Below are positions 5,950 to 62,973 of a DNA stretch of 64,000 nucleotides, piece by piece. Position numbers and translations under genes: made by a program. Origin of the DNA: an uncultured Conexibacteraceae bacterium (GTDB lineage: Bacteria; Actinomycetota; Thermoleophilia; Solirubrobacterales; 70-9). Location of the stretch: positions 46,897 through 110,896 of the forward strand of contig CAYXFL010000001.1 in assembly GCA_964464285.1 (NCBI GenBank), read 5' to 3'. Numbering within the stretch: the stretch's first letter is position 1; each line of letters begins with the position of its first letter. The notes beneath the pieces were generated by a model. It made no database searches. It saw only the letters and a program-made list of their open reading frames with translations, and had not been told where the DNA came from.

Positions 5950-6130
5950 CGCGGCCGATGCTATCGGCCCTTGCGGGAAGCGCACGCCTTCGTGCGCTTC
6001 CACCGCTCGCTGCAATTTCCGAACTTTCCGGATCGGTCCGTTCCAGAAAGGGGGGAGAGAACGCCCACCGCTGAGCTTTCGGTGGCATGTTTGCTACAGA
6101 GAGGTTTATTGCCCAGGGAGGGGCACAGCG

Positions 6131-7465: not shown

Positions 7466-9576
7466 GGCAGGCGCCGCCGATCCTCAAGCGCCTGCTCGCG
7501 GCCTGCGCCTGCCTGGCGTCGGTCGCGCTCGCCCTCGCGGCGGGCGCGGCGGGCGCGGCCGAAGCGCGACTTGCGAGCCTGAACGTGAACGACGAGAGTG
7601 CCGACTGGTACCCAAGGAGCGACTTCGTGCTGCGATGGAGCTACACCCCGCCGGCCGTGGACACGAGGATCGTCCTCACCGGCTTCGGCTACCGCCTGCT
7701 CGACCCCGATGGGCACGAGATCGCACAGGATGGCGTCGCAGCGGACGCCCGCCTGACCACGGTGAACCTGCGCGCTTCGGCGCTGGGCGTGGCGCCGAGA
7801 CCCGGCTTCTACACAGTCGAGCTCTGGGCCCAAGAGCGACAGGGGCAGGACGCGGTGAACCCGGCGACAAGTGGCCCGCCGCTGACCAGGACGTTCGGCT
7901 TCGACGACGTCCGCCCCGGGCCGGCGGCCCCGGTGCCGGTCTCCGCCTGGGTGCGCGGCGACGAGGAACCCGTGCTGCGGATCGCCCACCCGGCGCAGCC
8001 GCGGCCGGTCTCGGGCATCCGCGGCTACGCCTTCTCGGTCCGTCAGGACTCGCCGGCGGCTCCCTGCGCCGGCGCCGCGCTCTGCAGCGAGCAGGAGACC
8101 GACCTGCGCGGCGGGATCGGCGACGACGCGATCCGGCTCGGGCTGCTGCCCGAGGGCCGCCACCACGTCAGCGTGGTCGCCGTCTCCAACGCCGGGCTGC
8201 GCTCCGCCGTCGCCGCGACCGCGGTCGTCGGCGTCGACGCCTCGCCGCCGGACATCGCCCTCGACGGTGTCGGCGGCGGCTGGTCGGACCGGCCGGTGAT
8301 CGTGCACGCGCGGGCCGGCGACTCGCTCTCGGGGATGCGCGCGGACGGGGTCACCGGGCCGCGGACGACGCTGGTCCTCGACGGCGGCACCCCGGTCCTC
8401 GCCGCAGGCAGCGAGGTCGCGATCACGGTCAGCGGCAGCGGCGTCCACCAGGTGGCGGCGAGCGCCCGCGACGCGGCCGGCCAGGTCCGCGGTGAGGACA
8501 GCGGGGTGCCGCCGGTTACCGGGCTCGTGCGGATCGACGAAACGCCGCCGCGGCTCGCCTTCGTCCGCGGCGGCGACCCGGCGGCGCCGGAGCTGATCGA
8601 GGCGACGGTCGCCGACCCCCACTCCGGCCCGGCCGCACGGGGCACGATCGCGGTGCGCCGGCTCGGTTCCGGCCAGCCGTTCGAGCCGCTGTCGACCGTC
8701 GCCGGCGAGGGCCGGCTGAGCGCCCGCTGGGACTCCGACGCCCACCCGGACGGGAGCTACGAGTTCCGGGCGACCGGCTACGACCGCGCCGGCAACGCGG
8801 GCAGCTCCGGGTCGCGCGCCAGCGGCACCGCGATGGTCCTGCTCAACCCGGTCAAGGCGCGCACCGCGGTCCGCTTCGGCTTCGGCGGGCGGCGCCTGAT
8901 CTGGCACCGCTGCGTGCGCAAGGGCGAGGGGCGGCGCTGCCGGCGCGAGGTGGTCGAGTCCTTCGGCCGGCGCCCGGCCAGCCGGACGGTCCCGTACGGG
9001 CAGCGGCTGCAGGTCGCCGGCCGGCTCGAAACCGCCGCCGGCGCAGCGCTCGGCGGGCGGCCGGTCGAGCTGGTCGAGACGTTCGCGCCGGGGTCCGGGA
9101 TCGAGAGCCGGGTGACCCGGCTGGAGACCGCCGCCGACGGCGGCTTCCTCGCCCGCCTCTCCCCCGGTCCGAGCCGCCGCCTCGAGGCCCGCTTCCCCGG
9201 CAGCCCACTGCTCACCCGGGCCACCAGCCCCGCGCTCGAGCTCGGCGTCCGCAGCCTGGTGCGGCTGCGCGCCTCGACCGCGTACGCCGCGGTCGGCGGC
9301 GCCCCGGTCGTGTTCAGCGGCCGGGTCGGCACCAGCGAAGCGCGCATCCCCGCCTACGGCCGCCCGGTCGGGCTCCAGTTCCGCCTGCCCGGCGCGCCCT
9401 GGACCGAGTTCCGCACCGTCCAGACCGACGCCCAGGGCCGCTTCCGCTTCCCCTACTCACTGAGCGACGACGACAGCCGCGGCGTCCGCTTCCTCTTCCG
9501 CGCCTACGCCCCACCCCAGCCCGGCTGGCCCTACGAGTCGGCGGCATCGCTGCCGGTCGCGGTCACGGGCCGGTGA
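7462..9576 (+). CDS. large exported hypothetical protein (704 aa)
   Basis: The GTG start overlaps the sigma-fusion stop (GTGA). Signal peptide LLAACACLASVALALAAGAAGAAEA. The sequence looks repetitive, beta-rich and Ig-like. Confidence 0.7.
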   Translation: MRQAPPILKRLLAACACLASVALALAAGAAGAAEARLASLNVNDESADWYPRSDFVLRWSYTPPAVDTRIVLTGFGYRLLDPDGHEIAQDGVAADARLTTVNLRASALGVAPRPGFYTVELWAQERQGQDAVNPATSGPPLTRTFGFDDVRPGPAAPVPVSAWVRGDEEPVLRIAHPAQPRPVSGIRGYAFSVRQDSPAAPCAGAALCSEQETDLRGGIGDDAIRLGLLPEGRHHVSVVAVSNAGLRSAVAATAVVGVDASPPDIALDGVGGGWSDRPVIVHARAGDSLSGMRADGVTGPRTTLVLDGGTPVLAAGSEVAITVSGSGVHQVAASARDAAGQVRGEDSGVPPVTGLVRIDETPPRLAFVRGGDPAAPELIEATVADPHSGPAARGTIAVRRLGSGQPFEPLSTVAGEGRLSARWDSDAHPDGSYEFRATGYDRAGNAGSSGSRASGTAMVLLNPVKARTAVRFGFGGRRLIWHRCVRKGEGRRCRREVVESFGRRPASRTVPYGQRLQVAGRLETAAGAALGGRPVELVETFAPGSGIESRVTRLETAADGGFLARLSPGPSRRLEARFPGSPLLTRATSPALELGVRSLVRLRASTAYAAVGGAPVVFSGRVGTSEARIPAYGRPVGLQFRLPGAPWTEFRTVQTDAQGRFRFPYSLSDDDSRGVRFLFRAYAPPQPGWPYESAASLPVAVTGR

Positions 9577-9631
9577 ACGACGAGCGCCCCGGGGGTCCGG
9601 GGCGCTCGGGTCCTGCGGGATGTCAGGTCGC

Positions 9632-10159
9632 TTACCTGAACGACGGGAGCTGGCCGGCGACCGAGCCGACGAGGTCCTGGGCGCGGCTGCCCTGCTCCTC
9701 GATCGCGCGGCGCACGCGCTGCTCGACGTCGTCGCGGTTGCGCTTGATCGTGCTCTCGACCGTCTGCTGGCGCTTGCGGGCTTCGCGCTCGACCCGGGTG
9801 CGGGTCTTGCGGGCCTCGGTGGTCGCCTTGCGGCGGGCGCTGCTGCCGCGACGCTCGGTCCGCTTCAGCGATTTGCGCAGCTGGGTGCGGTAGGCCTTGA
9901 TCTGCTTCTCGGCGCTGCTGCGGCCGGTCCACGGCTCGACCAGGTCGGTGACCCGGTCGCTGACGCTGAGCACGACGCCGACCGGGAAGTCGACGGCGCT
10001 TTCGGCGGCGGTGAGGACCTGGTTCTTCTCCGCGGCGGCGGCGCGCTTGCTGGCTTTGGCGCTCGCGCCAGCGGCTTTTTTGGCTTCCGTGGTCGCGCGT
10101 TTCGCCTGCGTTTTCGGTTTGCTGGTTTTGCTGCTTTTGGTGCTTTTGCTCTCTGCCAT
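9632..10159 (-). CDS. Lys/Arg-rich basic coiled-coil protein (HbhA-like / nucleoid-associated-like)
   Basis: The N-terminal KSTKSSKTSKPKTQAKRATTEAKKAAGASAKASKRAAAAEK low-complexity tract is followed by a long charged helical region. Similarity to the HbhA family is judged by eye only. Confidence 0.65.
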   Translation of the reverse strand: MAESKSTKSSKTSKPKTQAKRATTEAKKAAGASAKASKRAAAAEKNQVLTAAESAVDFPVGVVLSVSDRVTDLVEPWTGRSSAEKQIKAYRTQLRKSLKRTERRGSSARRKATTEARKTRTRVEREARKRQQTVESTIKRNRDDVEQRVRRAIEEQGSRAQDLVGSVAGQLPSFR

Positions 10160-10210
10160 GAAGTTGAGTGATCCCTTCGAGTTTTCGTTTGCCTGCCTCG
10201 GGCGTTCCCG

Positions 10211-10245
10211 AGTGTAGCGAACATATGTTCCACGAACACACGTTC
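10211..10245 (-). promoter_or_regulatory. tandem LexA-type (Cheo/SOS) boxes overlapping a candidate promoter
   Basis: CGAACATATGTTC (10218-10230) and CGAACACACGTTC (10233-10245) both fit CGAAC-N4-GTTC. On the minus strand a TACACT -10 candidate (complement of 10211-10216) lies just downstream of box 1. The site is 52-86 nt upstream of ATG 10159. Confidence 0.6.
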
Positions 10246-10307
10246 TTAAACGCCTTTCACCGCCTGGTTACAGGGGCGCCGCAGAGACCGCGAGATCGAG
10301 GCGCGGC

Positions 10308-11153
10308 TCAGACCGACTGCGCGGCGAGCACGGTCGCCAGGCCCGCCGCGCTGCTGGCGGCGGCGATCGGGTAGCGCGCGGCGAGGTCGAGCTGCGCCTC
10401 GGCCAGCGGGATCTCGCCGAAGGCGACCTCGCCGCCGGCCTCGCGCACGAAGAGCTGCGCGGCGGCGGCGTCGACCGAGCGGCAGGGGCGCAGGCTCAGC
10501 ATCGCGTCGAAGCGGCCCGTGCCGACGTAGGAGGCGGTGATCGCGATCGAGCCGACCACGCGCAGGCGGTAGGCGCGGCCCTCGAGCGCGGCGAGCACCG
10601 GCTGCGACCACTGCGGCTCGGCCGACTCCAGCCCGACCACCTCGAGCCGCTCGGCCGCGGGGGCGACCCGGGCCGGGACCGCGTGGACGCCGCCGGCGGC
10701 GTCCACGCGGCCGGCCGTCGCCCCCGCCCCGCGCTGCGCGACGAACTCCTCACCGGCGCCGAAGTCGTGGACGAAGCCGAGCTCGACGTCGGCCATCGAG
10801 GACCCGGAGGCGACCGCGATGCTGAGGCTGTGGGAGGGGATCGTGCGGCGCGCGTTGAGCGATCCGTCGATCGGGTCGACCACCACCCGGACCGGGCCGC
10901 CGCCGTTGAAGGCGGCCTCGCCGCGCTCCTCGGATACGGCGACGAAGGCGGCCCCCTGGGCGGCCAGCGCCTCGAGCTCGGAGAAGACCACGTCCTCGCA
11001 TTCGCGGTCGATCACCAGGGTGCGGTCGCCGCCCTCGCCGACCCCCTCGTAGACGGTGCGCTCGGCGCTGCTGGCGCTGGCCGCGAAGATCGCTCGCTGG
11101 GCGGCCACCGAGCGGCGGCAGATCCCCAGCCAGTCCGCGGAGAGAACGTCCAT
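10308..11153 (-). CDS. inositol monophosphatase / FBPase-family phosphatase
   Basis: This is the C-terminal 281 aa of the 1154-aa track ORF. Motifs SEERG, VVVDPIDGSLN and GSIAITASYVGTGRFDA are typical of the IMPase fold. Start at MDVLSADW (11153). Confidence 0.8.
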   Translation of the reverse strand: MDVLSADWLGICRRSVAAQRAIFAASASSAERTVYEGVGEGGDRTLVIDRECEDVVFSELEALAAQGAAFVAVSEERGEAAFNGGGPVRVVVDPIDGSLNARRTIPSHSLSIAVASGSSMADVELGFVHDFGAGEEFVAQRGAGATAGRVDAAGGVHAVPARVAPAAERLEVVGLESAEPQWSQPVLAALEGRAYRLRVVGSIAITASYVGTGRFDAMLSLRPCRSVDAAAAQLFVREAGGEVAFGEIPLAEAQLDLAARYPIAAASSAAGLATVLAAQSV

Positions 11154-11186: not shown

Positions 11187-14129
11187 ATGCGCGACCCACG
11201 TCCAACCGCCGCCGCCCCGCCCGGCGAGCGCGTCGCCGCGCACGGCGAGGGCCCGCTGCTGATCGTCGGCGCGCCGGGCACCGGCAAGACCGAGCTGCTG
11301 GCCCGGCGCTTCGCCAACCTGGCCGCCGCCGAGGGCAGCGACCGGGTGCTGATGATCGGCTCGACCCGGGCCACCGCGACGCGCCTGCGCGAACGCGCCG
11401 AGGCGCTCCTGCGCGGGCCCTTCGAGGAGCTCTGGATCGGCAGCTGGGACACGCTCGGCGAGCGGCTGCTGCGCGAGCACTCCGAGGCCGCCGGCCTCGA
11501 CCCCTTCTTCGACGTGCTCGGCCCGGCCGAGCGGCTGGCGATGCTGCTCGACCGGCTCGACCAGCTGCCCCTGCGCCGCCACGAGATCCGCGGCAACCCG
11601 GCCGGCCTGCTGGCCCGGCTGCTCGCCCGGATCGACGCGCTGAAGGCGGACTCGACCGGGCCGACCTCGCTGGAGCGGCGCGCCCGCGCGGCCGAGGAGG
11701 CGGCGCGCAACGAGGCCGAGCGCGAGGCGGCGCGGCGCGAGCTCGAGTTCGCCGAGCTGTTCAGCGCCCACGACCGCATCCTCGCCGACGCCGGCAGCCT
11801 CGACCGCGGCGACGTCTTCCTGGCGCTCGAGTGCCTGCTGGTCGAGCGCCCCGACGTGCGGGCCGAGCTCGCCGCCCGCTTCCGCTTCCTGATGGTCGAC
11901 GAGCTCGAGGAGGCGACCGCCGCGCAGCGCACGCTGCTGCGCTCGCTCGCCGCCGACAACCAGAACCAGCTGTTCGTGCTCGAGGACGACAGCGAGGCCG
12001 AGCTCTGGTTCCGCGACCTCCACCCCGACGGCGAGGTCGTGGTGCTGGAGCGCCGCTTCCGCGATCCCGAGCTCGGCTTCTGGAGCTGCGAGAACGAGCG
12101 CGCGCAGGCGCAGGCGGTGGCCCGGGCGGCCGAGCAGCAGCTGGCGACCGGGACCGCGCCGGAGCAGATCTGCGTGCTGTTCGCCGACCCGGCGACCCAG
12201 GGCGGCGCGGTCGCCGCGGCGATGGAGGAGCGCGGCATCCCCTTTCACCTGGCCGGGGCGACGGCGCTGTTCCAGCGGCCCGAGGTGCGCGACGCGATCG
12301 CCTGGCTGCGGGTGCTCGCCGACCCCGGCGACTCGGCGGCGGCGGCGCGGGCGCTGACCCGGCCGCCGATCGAACTGCGCTCGGGCGACCTGGCGCGGCT
12401 GACCACGATCGCGCGGCGGCGCAAGCTCGACCTCGTCGCCGGCTGCGAGGCGGCGCTCGAAAGCCCCCAGTTCCAGCCCGAGGCGCGCGAGCGCTTCCAG
12501 TCCTTCCTGCGCCTCTACAACGCCGCGGCGGGGGCGATGGAGGAGCGCCGCGCCGACGTCTTCGTAAGGCGCCTGGTCGAGAACGTAGGGTTGCGCCGCC
12601 AGCGCCTCTTCGCCGCCCAGCCGGAGGTCGCCGAGCGGCTGCTCGGGCTCTCGCGCCTGGCCGAGCTGGCGACCGCCTGGGCGCGCCGCGAGCCGCACGG
12701 CTCGACCCGCGGCTTCGTCGCTTACCTGAGCGCCGTCGCCGAGGCCGGGGTCGAGCCGGTCGAGGGCGAGGACCCGCGCTCGCGCGGGTCGGTCCAGGGG
12801 ATGGCGGTGGAGGCCGCGAAGGGGATCGGGTTCGACCACGTCTTCGTGCTCGGGCTCGAGCACGAGCGCGACTGGTCGGGGATCGGCTGGCCGGCCCGCG
12901 ACGGGCTGGTGCTCTCGCGGCTGCGCCGCGGCGGCGAGAGCGAAGCGCGGCCGGCGCGTCACTTCGAGCAGGCCCTGGCCAGCGCCGAGGGGGTCGAGGA
13001 GCTGCACGAGGAGGAGCTGTTCGGGCCGGCCGAGGGCCTGCACGCGACCTACCGCCAGCTGCGCGAGCAGGTGCTGGAGGCCTCCTGGAAGGCGGGCCGC
13101 GAGCTCTCCGAGCCGCGCCTCGACACGGCGATCGACGTGAACCGGGCGATCGCCCGCTACCTCGAGCTGCTGAAGCTGGCGGCGCTGGCCCAGCGGCCCG
13201 GCGAGGAGGGCACCGCGGAGGCGATCCAGGCGGTCAACGGGCTGCTGCGCCAGGTGGCGACGCCCGAGCAGCAGGCCGAGCTCGACGCCTCCTCGCTCGA
13301 CTCCTACCTGCTCGGCTCGGAGAGCGAGCGCGGCCGCCGGCTGGAGCTGGTCGCGGCCCGCGAGGAGCCCTCGCTGGCGGCGTTCCTGCCGCGCCGCGGC
13401 GACGGCATGCTCAGCCTCTCGGCCTCCGACCTGACCCTCTACCTGACCTGCCCGCTGAAGTACAAGTTCGCCCGCGTCTTCGGGATCCCGCAGGAGCCGA
13501 CGATCAACCAGCGCTTCGGGATCCTGATCCACAACGTGCTCGAGCGCTTCCACAAGGAACCGCCGGAGGAGGGCGAGGACGGGCTGCGGGTGCTGAACCG
13601 GCTGTTCGAGGCGGGCTGGCGGCGGACCGGGTTCGGGAGCAGCGACGACGAGCTGCAGTTCCGCGACCGCGCCCGGGAGGCGCTGCGGCTCTACTGGGAC
13701 CAGGAGCGGGTCGCCGAGGGCGAACCGGTCTGGCTGGAGCGCAAGTTCGACTTCAAGGTCGGCGAGCACCACGTGCGCGGCCGGGTCGACCGGGTCGACC
13801 GCCTGCCCGACGGCGACTACGAGCTGATCGACTACAAGACCGGCGAGCGCAAGAGCGCCGAGGAGCTGGAGAGCGACCTGCAGCTCGCCCTCTACCGGCT
13901 CGCCGCCCGCGAGGCCTGGGAGGTCGAGGCGAGCGCCGGCTCCTACTACTACGTGCTCGACGGCGACAAGGTCGCCGCGCCGACCAGGCCCGACGACGCG
14001 GAGCGGGTCGAGCGCACCGTGCTCGGGGTCGGCGAGGGCATCCTCAGCCAGGACTTCGAGCCGCGGCCCTCACCGAGCGTCTGCTCCTGGTGCGACTACC
14101 GGCTGATCTGCCCCGCGGCCGAAGCCTGA
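11187..14129 (+). CDS. UvrD/AddB/AdnA-like helicase-nuclease with a degenerate SF1 motor and a C-terminal PD-(D/E)XK nuclease carrying a Cys cluster
   Basis: Walker A GAPGTGKT is intact. Motif II reads VDELEE, motif III is degenerate (LEDDSEAEL), and motifs V/VI are weak or absent. The nuclease core is GRVDRVDRL...ELIDYKTG...QLALY, with YLTCP plus C-terminal CSWCDYRLICP resembling an AddB/Cas4-type Fe-S ligand set. Confidence 0.8.
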   Translation: MRDPRPTAAAPPGERVAAHGEGPLLIVGAPGTGKTELLARRFANLAAAEGSDRVLMIGSTRATATRLRERAEALLRGPFEELWIGSWDTLGERLLREHSEAAGLDPFFDVLGPAERLAMLLDRLDQLPLRRHEIRGNPAGLLARLLARIDALKADSTGPTSLERRARAAEEAARNEAEREAARRELEFAELFSAHDRILADAGSLDRGDVFLALECLLVERPDVRAELAARFRFLMVDELEEATAAQRTLLRSLAADNQNQLFVLEDDSEAELWFRDLHPDGEVVVLERRFRDPELGFWSCENERAQAQAVARAAEQQLATGTAPEQICVLFADPATQGGAVAAAMEERGIPFHLAGATALFQRPEVRDAIAWLRVLADPGDSAAAARALTRPPIELRSGDLARLTTIARRRKLDLVAGCEAALESPQFQPEARERFQSFLRLYNAAAGAMEERRADVFVRRLVENVGLRRQRLFAAQPEVAERLLGLSRLAELATAWARREPHGSTRGFVAYLSAVAEAGVEPVEGEDPRSRGSVQGMAVEAAKGIGFDHVFVLGLEHERDWSGIGWPARDGLVLSRLRRGGESEARPARHFEQALASAEGVEELHEEELFGPAEGLHATYRQLREQVLEASWKAGRELSEPRLDTAIDVNRAIARYLELLKLAALAQRPGEEGTAEAIQAVNGLLRQVATPEQQAELDASSLDSYLLGSESERGRRLELVAAREEPSLAAFLPRRGDGMLSLSASDLTLYLTCPLKYKFARVFGIPQEPTINQRFGILIHNVLERFHKEPPEEGEDGLRVLNRLFEAGWRRTGFGSSDDELQFRDRAREALRLYWDQERVAEGEPVWLERKFDFKVGEHHVRGRVDRVDRLPDGDYELIDYKTGERKSAEELESDLQLALYRLAAREAWEVEASAGSYYYVLDGDKVAAPTRPDDAERVERTVLGVGEGILSQDFEPRPSPSVCSWCDYRLICPAAEA

Positions 14130-60921: not shown

Positions 60922-62973
60922 TCAGTCCGAGACCTCTTTGGCGATCGCGTCGCGGGCGTCCTGGGGTTCGAGCACGACGAGGTCGCCGGCGCCGCGCAGG
61001 ATCTCCCGCACCAGCCAGGGCTTGCCGGCGTAGGGAAGCTCGACAACGACGGCGCCGTCGGCCAGCTCCTCGACCACGGTGCGCTCCTCGCGCAGCCAGC
61101 GCGCCCGCTCCGGCGAGACCCAGACCCGGGCGACCTCGGCGGTCGGCACCTCGCCGTGGGTCATCCAGCCCTCGACCCCGGCGAACTCCTCGACTTCCGG
61201 GCGCGGCTCGAAGCTCTGCTCGGAGAGCGTCGCCTCCTTGATCCGGTCGAGCTTGAAGTGGCGGACGCCCTCTTTGCCGAGGTCGTAGCACTCGACGTAC
61301 CAGCCCTCTTTGCCGTTCTCGAGCCGGTAGGGCTCGACCCGGCGGTCGGTGAGCTGGTCCTCGTTCTCCTTGTAGTAGGAGAGCTCGAGCACGCGGCTCT
61401 TCGCGATCGCGTCGTTGACGAGGCGGGCGACGGCGGCGTCGCCGCCGCCGGTCGGGACGATCTCGAGGCCCTCCTCGGAGGGGTCGTGACCGAGCGCGCC
61501 GACGATTTTCTCGCGGGCGCTCTGCAGGTCGGACTGCGGCAGGTGGTCGCCGAAGAGGTCGATCGCGGCGACCAGCGCCTTCGCCTCCAGCGGCAAGAGG
61601 CGGGCCGGGCGGGCGAAGTTGTCGCCGTAGGGCTGCGAGTCGACCTCGATCTCGTCGCCGAGGATCTCCGCGTAGAGCACGTAGGTGCCGCCGCCGAAGT
61701 TGACCACGTTGAGCAGCTCGACGTCCTCGCGCAGCTCGTCGTCGGTCAGCTCCAGCCGCTGGCGCAGCTCGGCGATCTGCAGCCGCTCGCCCTTTTTCGC
61801 CGCTTCGATCAGCAGGCCGGCGAGGGTGACCAGGCGGGCGAAGCGCTCCGGGCGGATCGCCGCCTCGCCGCGGCCGTTGGAGCGGCCGCGGCGGGGCGCG
61901 TCGCGCAGCGGCCGGTCGACCACCTGGGCCGGCTTGAACCCGTTCTCGTGGCGGTCGCGCAGCAGCGAGACCCGGCTCTCGGCCTCCGCGCGCAGCTCCG
62001 CCGGCTCCAGCACGCGGGCGTTCTGGCGCCAGCGCAGGACCCAGGCGATCAGCTCGCGGTGCGAGGCGTACTCGGTCTCGAACACCTTGCCCTTGCCCGG
62101 CGCCCCGTCGGACTTCTTGGCGTCGCGAAGCTCGCCGTACTCGCCGAAGTCGCGCTCGATCAGCCAGGCGATCCGCTCGCGGATGAAGATCTTCGCGGTG
62201 CCCTGGGTCTCCCCCAGCTGCCAGTCGGCGCGGCTGCCGTAGTCGCGGCGGTCGAAGTTCTCCGGCGGTGAGAAGTCGTGCTCGGCCTTGGACGCATATC
62301 CGACCTTGCCCTGGATCCGCGAGAGCCGGAAGACCCGCACCGCGTCGCGCTCGTGCGAGTGGCCGATCAAGTAGAACTGGCCGCCGCGGAAGACCAGGTG
62401 GAAGGGGTCGACCTTGCGCTTCTCGGTCTCGCCCCGCTCCATCGTGAAGTAGGTGAACTCGATCGTCTTGCGGCGGCTGATCGCGGTCTCGATCTTGGAG
62501 AGGCGCTGGGAGAGGTCGCGGCCGCCGGCGGAGGCGGTCATCGCCATCTCGACCGGGGCGCGCTCGCCCTCGTGCAAGGGGTTGGGATGGCCCCAGGCGA
62601 CCTGCTGCAGGGCCAGGCGCAGCGGCTCCGCGTAGGCGAAGCCGCCGTCGGTGAGCAGCAGCAGCGCGGTCGAGAGCGCCGCCAGCTCGTCGTCGGAGAA
62701 GGAGATCGCGTCGAGGTAGAAGTTCTCCGGCGGCAGCGAGTAGAGCTCGGCCTCGAAGAACCCCTCGCCGGGCTTCTCGACCCCGAGCTGGATCCCGAGG
62801 CTCTCGAGCTCCGCCCGGTCCGCGTAGAAACGACGCGCGAACGCGTCGTCGTTCATGTCGCTATAGCCCTCCACCTCACGCTTGATCTCCAGGGCCGAGA
62901 CTGGGCGGCCCTGGGCCATCAGGAACGAGATCAGAGAGAGCTGGCGGATCAGCTTCTCGGTGTCCTTCGCCAC
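60922..62973 (-). CDS. pafBC: fused PafB-PafC-like transcriptional regulator (two HTH-WYL-WCX modules in one chain)
   Basis: Module 1 has LIRQLSLISFLM... (HTH) and TIEFTYFTMERGETEKRKVDPFHLVFRGGQFYLIGH (WYL). Module 2 has RFARLVTLAGLL... and VLELSYYKENEDQLTDRRVEPYRLENGKEGWYVECYD (WYL). GTG start at 62973. Confidence 0.8.
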   Translation of the reverse strand: MAKDTEKLIRQLSLISFLMAQGRPVSALEIKREVEGYSDMNDDAFARRFYADRAELESLGIQLGVEKPGEGFFEAELYSLPPENFYLDAISFSDDELAALSTALLLLTDGGFAYAEPLRLALQQVAWGHPNPLHEGERAPVEMAMTASAGGRDLSQRLSKIETAISRRKTIEFTYFTMERGETEKRKVDPFHLVFRGGQFYLIGHSHERDAVRVFRLSRIQGKVGYASKAEHDFSPPENFDRRDYGSRADWQLGETQGTAKIFIRERIAWLIERDFGEYGELRDAKKSDGAPGKGKVFETEYASHRELIAWVLRWRQNARVLEPAELRAEAESRVSLLRDRHENGFKPAQVVDRPLRDAPRRGRSNGRGEAAIRPERFARLVTLAGLLIEAAKKGERLQIAELRQRLELTDDELREDVELLNVVNFGGGTYVLYAEILGDEIEVDSQPYGDNFARPARLLPLEAKALVAAIDLFGDHLPQSDLQSAREKIVGALGHDPSEEGLEIVPTGGGDAAVARLVNDAIAKSRVLELSYYKENEDQLTDRRVEPYRLENGKEGWYVECYDLGKEGVRHFKLDRIKEATLSEQSFEPRPEVEEFAGVEGWMTHGEVPTAEVARVWVSPERARWLREERTVVEELADGAVVVELPYAGKPWLVREILRGAGDLVVLEPQDARDAIAKEVSD

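Follow-up and report, generated by a model that had tools for sequence, protein, structure and literature searches.

Multi-operator SOS promoters are known from the lexA, recN, and colicin genes of Escherichia coli and from the lexA/yneA region of Bacillus subtilis. Here, we describe a probable promoter of this kind in a 64-kb stretch of DNA (the whole stretch analyzed, hereafter "the window") from an uncultured Conexibacteraceae bacterium of the order Solirubrobacterales, in which two adjacent palindromes resembling the Cheo-type LexA operators of Actinomycetota and Firmicutes (CGAAC-N4-GTTCG) face a minus-strand gene for a very basic 175-aa protein. As in the known multi-operator promoters, two adjacent LexA sites on one promoter would imply tight repression and late or high-threshold induction. 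For actinobacteria, the LexA consensus has been defined by chromatin immunoprecipitation sequencing and surface plasmon resonance in Streptomyces venezuelae as tCGAAC-N4-GNNCGa (PMC9380542), and the boxed motif of the genome studied here matches it. On the protein side, the nearest precedents are MLDS from Rhodococcus jostii RHA1, whose PAKKA tail binds DNA non-specifically and whose loss lowers survival of UV irradiation (PMC5504291), and DdrC from Deinococcus, a lineage-specific DNA-binding protein of the damage regulon that guards DNA against nucleases (PMC6300522). The LexA regulon is the known part of this system; what is new, as judged from comparative sequence analysis, is a predicted order-specific member with a conserved promoter and a product that belongs to an uncharacterized protein family.

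The two palindromes, CGAACATATGTTC (box B, proximal to the gene) and CGAACACACGTTC (box A, distal), lie 15 bp apart from center to center, and both direct reading of the sequence and a pattern search return them as the only two matches to the motif in the window. Shuffled versions of the window contained 0.39 matches on average, and at least two matches anywhere, adjacency not being required, occurred in 9 of 100 shuffles. Each box combines a perfect GAAC-N4-GTTC core with one full CGAAC/GTTCG half-site, and the order on the coding (minus) strand is GTAACC-N14-GTTTAA-GAACGTGTGTTCG-tg-GAACATATGTTCG-c-TACACT, followed by a 52-nt leader and the ATG at 10159. The −10 candidate TACACT and both boxes hence lie 52 to 86 nt upstream of the start codon, in a stretch (10160-10260) with a GC content of 50.5%, compared to 72.4% across the window. 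A preliminary description of the locus had reported the tandem palindromes and their spacing, their AT-enriched setting, their distance from the ATG, and the TACACT behind the proximal box, all of which were borne out here. It had also named the 175-aa gene as the only one that the boxes can control, and we agree: the upstream neighbor, a minus-strand inositol-monophosphatase-family gene (10308-11153; PF00459, E value of 2.5e-19), ends at 10308, which leaves the 175-aa gene as the only gene downstream of the boxes.

The genome to which the window belongs (3.1 Mb, 71% GC, 133 contigs; its close relatives are all metagenome-assembled genomes [MAGs] of uncultured Solirubrobacterales) contains 36 GAAC-N4-GTTC cores; wherever such a core has CGAAC/GTTCG flanks and an A/T-rich N4, it lies between genes. 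When the genome was scored with a 20-nt LexA matrix trained on 11 other sites, the two tested boxes being excluded, box B ranked 13th and box A 15th genome-wide. Each of the top 15 sites falls between genes or at the edge of one, the next site scores 16.7 bits, and sites of at least 18 bits number 15 in the real genome and 2 in a reversed-sequence control. Among these strong sites, the only pair in the genome is the one at the 175-aa gene. Genes adjacent to the boxes, as annotated with Pfam, include (i) lexA (PF01726 and PF00717, that is, LexA_DNA_bind and Peptidase_S24), with the box CGAACAAGTGTTCG 61 nt upstream; (ii) dinB, encoding a Y-family polymerase; (iii) uvrA; (iv) a cassette with a DnaE2-type polymerase; and (v) genes for an intein-interrupted radical-SAM protein of a repair type, an XRE regulator, and a DUF1508-like protein. 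The best LexA site of the genome, TACGAACATATGTTCGTA, heads the cassette (G000:C7:54924-59654), which comprises a 360-aa protein without Pfam match, an 83-aa open reading frame (ORF), and the DnaE2-type polymerase and looks like an imuA'/imuB-like mutasome cassette. As judged from their distribution, the boxes are this organism's LexA motif, specific genome-wide for SOS genes. In their core palindrome and their A/T-rich N4, they are the same as Cheo-type operators elsewhere, and so would be their position over the putative promoter; the gene predicted to be regulated, in contrast, is new.

The preliminary description had expected the motif to mark canonical SOS genes. This holds for lexA, uvrA, dinB, and the imuA'-like/dnaE2 cassette, but not for recA, which is split over two contig ends (G000:C118:1145-3555 and G000:C21:46519-46962) and shows no LexA box on the 3.5-kb contig carrying its 5' end, where cinA and a 2H-phosphoesterase (thpR-like) gene immediately precede it. 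Since no box was seen for recA, this gene is unusable as an SOS marker in this genome; it may lie outside direct LexA control or be served by a distant or LexA-independent, possibly PafBC-type, promoter. A different LexA motif at the recA and lexA promoters, one of the findings that had been named as refuting SOS membership, was not encountered: lexA has a box of the present type.

Some of the other sites merit a remark of their own. A near-perfect LexA box, ATACGAACATACGTTCG, lies over the start region of the gene for the 703-aa radical-SAM protein (G000:C9:28709-30820), whose intein contains a LAGLIDADG endonuclease domain. A LexA-like site with one mismatch, CGAACGATCGTTTG (G000:C36:25470-25565; 19.1 bits), is located between a consensus TTGACA-N17-TATGAT promoter and a 553-aa gene, which may be a further member of the regulon. 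Upstream of lexA (G000:C10:44056-46700), we noticed by eye a tRNA-like gene together with a 426-aa integrase-like ORF and no divergent small SOS gene; this region may be a former integration site.

Orthologs of the 175-aa gene were found in 21 of 24 genomes of the same genus and in most families of the order. Every one of the 22 loci of the genus, counting that of the window, has one or more perfect GAAC-N4-GTTC cores 60 to 110 nt before the start codon, and 13 loci have two. The alignment of these upstream regions shows conserved islands—GTAACC, GGTTTA(A/C), box A, box B, and TAnnCT—whereas the remaining spacer is variable and the boxes are spaced 15 to 19 bp apart. A set of 44 named Solirubrobacterales MAG loci, independent of this alignment, gave a similar picture, with two perfect cores in 30 loci, a single one in 12 (usually with a one-mismatch partner), and one-mismatch boxes only in the other 2.

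Beyond the genus, 20 to 21 of 24 distinct loci from other genera and families carry a single box with at most one core mismatch. This box usually reads CAAAC-N4-GTTCG, with a perfect GAAC core in five loci, and it lies inside a near-consensus (T/G)TTACA-16/17 nt-TAnnnT promoter, where, unlike in Cheo-type operators elsewhere, the fixed CAAAC half-site also supplies the end of the −35 hexamer. Box A is the counterpart of this single box. The simplest history would start from an ancestral SOS promoter with a single operator, which in this genus gained another one between the old box and the −10 element; in contrast to the known multi-operator SOS promoters, the second box here thus appears to be a genus-level addition. 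In complete genomes of four other families, CGAAC-N4-GTTCG is enriched (for example, 19 occurrences compared to 0 in the control and 11 compared to 2), and its A/T-rich N4 spacers are the same ones (ATGT, ATAT, and GTAT); this LexA specificity is therefore common to the order. Overall, the promoter architecture is conserved more strictly than the protein sequence, and phylogenetic footprinting across genus and order lends strong in silico support to the SOS membership proposed in the preliminary description. We consider LexA (SOS) regulation of the 175-aa gene highly likely and, because the arrangement is conserved across the order, predict that the gene is very probably part of the DNA-damage response.

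The promoter contains more than the two operators (Table 1). In the genus, one base separates box B from the conserved TAnnCT, and in other genera the box occupies the 16/17-nt stretch between TTTACA and TAnnnT. A generic sigma-70 scan listed no promoter at the locus; the −35 element for TACACT is poor in this genus. The GTAACC island is invariant in all 22 genus loci and present in 41 of the 44 named MAG loci; in nearly all loci of other genera and families, GTAACC or GTAAC lies 26 nt upstream of the box, and the distance of 14 to 15 nt to GTTTAA/TTTACA is kept in essentially every orthologous promoter, including those of the one family that lacks a box. Within the genome, GTAACC-N12-17-GTTTA is unique to this promoter. 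As GTAAC is absent from the genome's other SOS promoters, it is not a general feature of such promoters, and we propose that GTAACC probably serves as an upstream promoter element or is bound by a second factor.

An extracytoplasmic function (ECF) sigma factor was considered as the source of this signal, since an ECF/ZAS fusion gene located 3 kb from the 175-aa gene has CCGAAC-N14-CGTTCC upstream. The idea that GTAAC-N14-CGTT forms an ECF-sigma promoter was rejected: the sigma orthologs keep a different block, GCAATTTCCG...TCCGTCCA, and the sigma gene adjoins the 175-aa gene within the genus only. The region upstream of this sigma/anti-sigma fusion gene (6012-6059 of the window) shows GCAATTTCCG-N17-20-TCCGTCCA-N3-6-GGGGGGAGAG, kept in the genus, which is likely the sigma factor's own promoter and ribosome-binding site.

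Folding of the leaders revealed a hairpin or palindrome at the 5' end, in the same place in most loci. Its structure is kept while its sequence changes, from GC-rich forms in the genus (CTCGGGAACGCCCGAG or GGGCTTCCCCAAGCCC) to CTTAGAAnTAAG- or CCTTAGAAATAAGG-type forms in other genera, and it may act as an mRNA-stabilizing 5' stem-loop or as a protein-binding site in the DNA. An Rfam scan of 9550-10350 gave sub-threshold noise only. At the other end of the gene, whose neighbors are the inositol-monophosphatase-family gene and a gene for an exported protein, a GC-rich hairpin is likely to be a bidirectional terminator, which would make the 175-aa gene monocistronic; the terminator scan did not list this hairpin because it has no T-tract.

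Table 1. Features of the 175-aa gene and its promoter region (positions in the window)
Feature	Position	Strand	Remarks
GC-rich hairpin	9582..9607		11-bp stem, read from the sequence, between the 175-aa gene and the convergent 704-aa gene; likely terminator
Coding sequence, 175-aa protein	9632..10159	−	from the ORF list; GC content at third codon positions (GC3) 0.91
Shine-Dalgarno-like AAGGGA	10172..10177	−	12 nt before the ATG; GAAGGG/GAAGAGG kept there in the 22-locus alignment
Palindrome CTCGGGAACGCCCGAG	10197..10212	−	start of the leader; from folding of leaders
−10 candidate TACACT	10211..10216	−	TAnnCT in all genus loci; variable at nnn only, in keeping with TAnnnT
Proximal LexA box (box B)	10218..10230		coding strand gGAACATATGTTCG; 19.3 bits; box 1 of the preliminary description
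Distal LexA box (box A)	10233..10245		coding strand aGAACGTGTGTTCG; 18.7 bits; box 2 of the preliminary description
GTTTAA, −35 counterpart	10246..10251	−	corresponds to the TTTACA/GGTACA hexamer of single-box promoters in other genera; from anchored promoter comparison
GTAACC	10266..10271	−	14-15 nt upstream of the −35-like hexamer, fixed

The product has a mass of 19.3 kDa and an isoelectric point of 11.2. Its sequence falls into a Lys/Ala/Ser/Thr-rich N-terminal tail (residues 1 to 46, net charge of +10), an acidic/hydrophobic core (residues 47 to 79) with invariant D57, V60-G61, D68-R69, and P76-W77, and an Arg/Lys/Glu helix (residues 80 to 150, net charge of +17) with the invariant pattern KRTERRG...ARR...VEREAR, followed by a short, neutral C terminus; neither a transmembrane segment nor an N-terminal hydrophobic helix was found. 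In an AlphaFold2 model built with 33 homologs, a short helix (residues 60 to 78) precedes a continuous helix spanning residues 80 to 174 at a predicted local distance difference test score (pLDDT) above 90, and the tail is of low confidence (pLDDT of about 50), with residues 1 to 17 modeled as coil. Hydrophobic residues recur at positions i and i+4 every 11 residues, a hendecad repeat that fits a two-stranded coiled coil; the protein is probably a dimer. Across the order, the PVG...ERRG...R(T/N)...ER core is conserved. The tail, always basic and Thr/Ala/Ser-rich, varies greatly in length, from about 10 to 110 residues, and has APKK/AAKK repeats in relatives from some genera.

Searches for known relatives gave little. 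No Pfam or NCBIfam family scored above threshold with the 175-aa protein, a PHROGs search gave no match, PDB searches by sequence returned weak repeat-helix matches only, and a Foldseek search of the AlphaFold2 model against PDB returned none. Matches below threshold were to ATP synthase b: PF00430 (ATP-synt_B) at 26.1 bits, below its cut-off of 28, and TIGR01144 at an E value of only 0.99. A profile of the family weakly matched apolipophorin-III, V-ATPase G, ATP synthase b, and apolipoproteins A-I and A-IV in PDB. The hendecad pattern explains these matches, since ATP synthase b and V-ATPase G are right-handed hendecad coiled coils that share the 11-residue periodicity; the likeness is one of helix geometry only, as, in contrast to ATP synthase b, the protein has no N-terminal membrane helix and its gene lies outside any atp operon. 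In a set of 1.84 billion proteins, the family is small and forms 212 clusters at 50% identity. It was found in none of 125 genomes from other orders of the class, and its profile detected weak partial matches but no full-length homolog in 281 other Actinomycetota genomes; the sole fusions among longer members are gene-calling read-through into an upstream Zincin_2 gene. By these searches, the family is confined to Solirubrobacterales and uncharacterized.

The preliminary description had called the protein HbhA-like. This stands for the architecture, as a long repeat helix and a basic, low-complexity, Lys/Ala-rich tail reminiscent of histone H1 are shared with HbhA, TadA, and MLDS, and the APKK/AAKK repeats of the relatives resemble the PAKKA motifs of MLDS. 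It does not stand for the sequence: no homology to HbhA, TadA, or MLDS was detected by the family libraries or by the profile search of the 281 genomes, with no pairwise alignment to HbhA being made. Moreover, the tail, though similar in composition to the C-terminal Lys/Ala/Pro-rich (PAKKA) tail of these proteins, is N-terminal, and the helix carries far more charge and has less hydrophobic character than theirs. Regulation differs as well, MLDS being under the control of MLDSR rather than LexA. The Deinococcus Ddr proteins offer a parallel of another sort, in that they, too, are lineage-restricted, of unknown fold, and conserved in the DNA-damage regulon of their clade, but their sequences are unrelated and their genes are under DdrO/IrrE control, via the RDRM motif, and not under that of LexA.

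We propose the following model. In the undamaged cell, LexA dimers would occupy both Cheo-type operators, one abutting the −10 element and the other lying over the −35 region, and shut the promoter. Upon DNA damage, RecA-stimulated self-cleavage of LexA, which in this genome has 207 aa and keeps the AAG (Ala-Gly) cleavage site and the GESM and VKR motifs with the Ser and Lys residues, would free the promoter. The product would then be a cytoplasmic, very basic, all-helical protein, with a disordered histone-H1-like N-terminal tail and a long Arg-rich helix, that binds DNA or the nucleoid non-specifically and coats, bridges, or shields damaged DNA. The near-consensus promoter in other genera, the leader hairpin, and the good ribosome-binding site would fit an abundant, stoichiometric product. 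We hold the full proposal—a LexA-repressed, damage-inducible gene whose product coats, bridges, or shields DNA—to be somewhat short of an even chance, and the biochemical part, non-specific binding to DNA, the nucleoid, or another polyanion, is put forward tentatively. A more specific version seems less likely than not: the protein would represent a new class of nucleoid proteins that are induced by damage, would combine a dimeric hendecad coiled coil, Arg-rich on its faces, with a tail like that of histone H1, and would coat or bridge broken DNA, and its promoter would receive a second regulatory input via GTAACC.

Several observations weigh against this proposal. In both boxes, the outer C of one half-site is absent and, together with the replacement of CGAAC by CAAAC in the single boxes of other families, this means that LexA affinity may be modest. 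In one family (f5), the only such family in the set, the promoter has no box. The variable spacing of 15 to 19 bp does not support cooperative, phase-dependent binding, so that cooperativity is not implied. The lack of a box at recA shows that the regulon is not fully classical. The ratio of nonsynonymous to synonymous substitution rates (dN/dS) against the genus orthologs, 0.37 to 0.77, indicates moderate constraint only. For the protein, no DNA-binding fold or family was detected in Pfam, NCBIfam, PHROGs, PDB by sequence, or Foldseek; it is solely charge and composition that suggest DNA binding, and Arg-rich helices bind RNA equally well.

The imperfect half-sites, along with the invariant GTAACC—a sign that another factor probably acts on this promoter—could also be taken to mean that LexA does not use the palindromes at all, which would then be chance occurrences or another regulator's sites in front of a gene that is not damage-inducible. 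We regard this as very improbable: two of the top 15 sites of the genome lie 15 bp apart in one promoter, the remaining top sites mark SOS genes or intergenic regions, and the sites are kept at all 22 genus loci and at 42 of the 44 named MAG loci, with the N4 preference of bona fide sites in sister genomes. The other alternatives accept LexA control and concern the product. It could act on translation or RNA stability during damage as an RNA or ribosome binder, given its long Arg-rich helix with invariant ERRG and RxxxR motifs and given that similar basic tails occur on ribosome-associated proteins; no RNA-binding family was matched in Pfam or NCBIfam, however, and we know of no SOS function of this type, so we consider this role improbable. 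A somewhat better, though still unlikely, candidate is a checkpoint effector that delays division or replication through an acidic partner in the divisome or replisome instead of through DNA. Double operators would suit a product that is harmful when leaky, and we saw no recognizable SOS division inhibitor, the place beside lexA being taken by the tRNA-like gene and the integrase-like ORF in lieu of a small divergent gene; Streptomyces, likewise, has no known SOS division inhibitor (PMC9380542). Yet YneA, ChiZ, DivS, and SosA are small membrane or LysM proteins, and the 175-aa protein has neither a transmembrane segment nor, according to Pfam, a LysM domain or a match to SulA, and thus shows neither the SulA fold nor the small membrane/LysM build by which SulA, YneA, ChiZ, DivS, SosA, and SidA are recognized. 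Its size of 19 kDa, extreme charge, and strongly built promoter rather suggest a bulk structural role.

A tether in the manner of MLDS, TadA, or HbhA, with the repeat helix on lipid droplets or the membrane and the basic tail holding DNA or another polyanion, has a precedent in MLDS (PMC5504291). It would be in line with the weak matches of the family profile to apolipophorin-III and apolipoproteins A-I and A-IV, with the weak match of 9 of 46 diverse family members to PF01442 (Apolipoprotein; best E value of 2.2e-6), and with the three WS/DGAT genes of the genome, one of which stands beside the LexA-boxed dinB. The 175-aa protein itself, however, is unmatched by the Apolipoprotein model; the equally weak matches to ATP synthase b and V-ATPase G point to hendecad periodicity and not to lipid binding; and residues 80 to 175, of which only about 12% are hydrophobic residues other than Ala and whose net charge is +17, are too polar for a class-A lipid-binding helix. 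As no homolog was found in the 281 other Actinomycetota genomes either, we think a lipid tether improbable, too. The link between dinB and WS/DGAT was set aside as support for a lipid-droplet role because it is too weak: dinB and the WS/DGAT (wax ester/triacylglycerol synthase) gene adjoin each other in most genomes of the order, but their orientation and spacing vary. At the dinB locus itself (G000:C21:11828-14430), the LexA box separates dinB from a divergent 92-aa gene, with the WS/DGAT gene starting 25 nt after dinB; with the search window used, boxes were found before dinB orthologs in 6 of 30 loci.

Solirubrobacterales are among the most abundant soil Actinomycetota, but few have been cultured and they have not been studied genetically. 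The present data provide a first in silico outline of the LexA regulon for this order, with lexA, uvrA, dinB, the imuA'-like/dnaE2 cassette, and the intein-bearing radical-SAM gene boxed and recA apparently not, and they add the 175-aa gene as a near-core, order-specific predicted member. That its promoter is more strictly conserved than its protein makes the gene a priority candidate for a lineage-specific function in DNA damage or desiccation. If the product indeed coats DNA, an SOS-controlled nucleoid protein would join the short list of damage-induced DNA-protecting proteins; if it represents a class of nucleoid proteins, it would help these abundant soil actinobacteria to persist under desiccation and UV, a role comparable to that of the Deinococcus Ddr proteins.

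Two further statements of the preliminary description, on repair-related genes in the surroundings, also proved correct. The nearby helicase-nuclease is a UvrD-type helicase with a PD-(D/E)XK nuclease domain (11187-14129). The PafBC-like regulator elsewhere in the window corresponds to two WYL-domain ORFs on the minus strand, at about 61228-62502, whose adjacent matches (77 and 70 bits) are consistent with a pafB/pafC-like pair.

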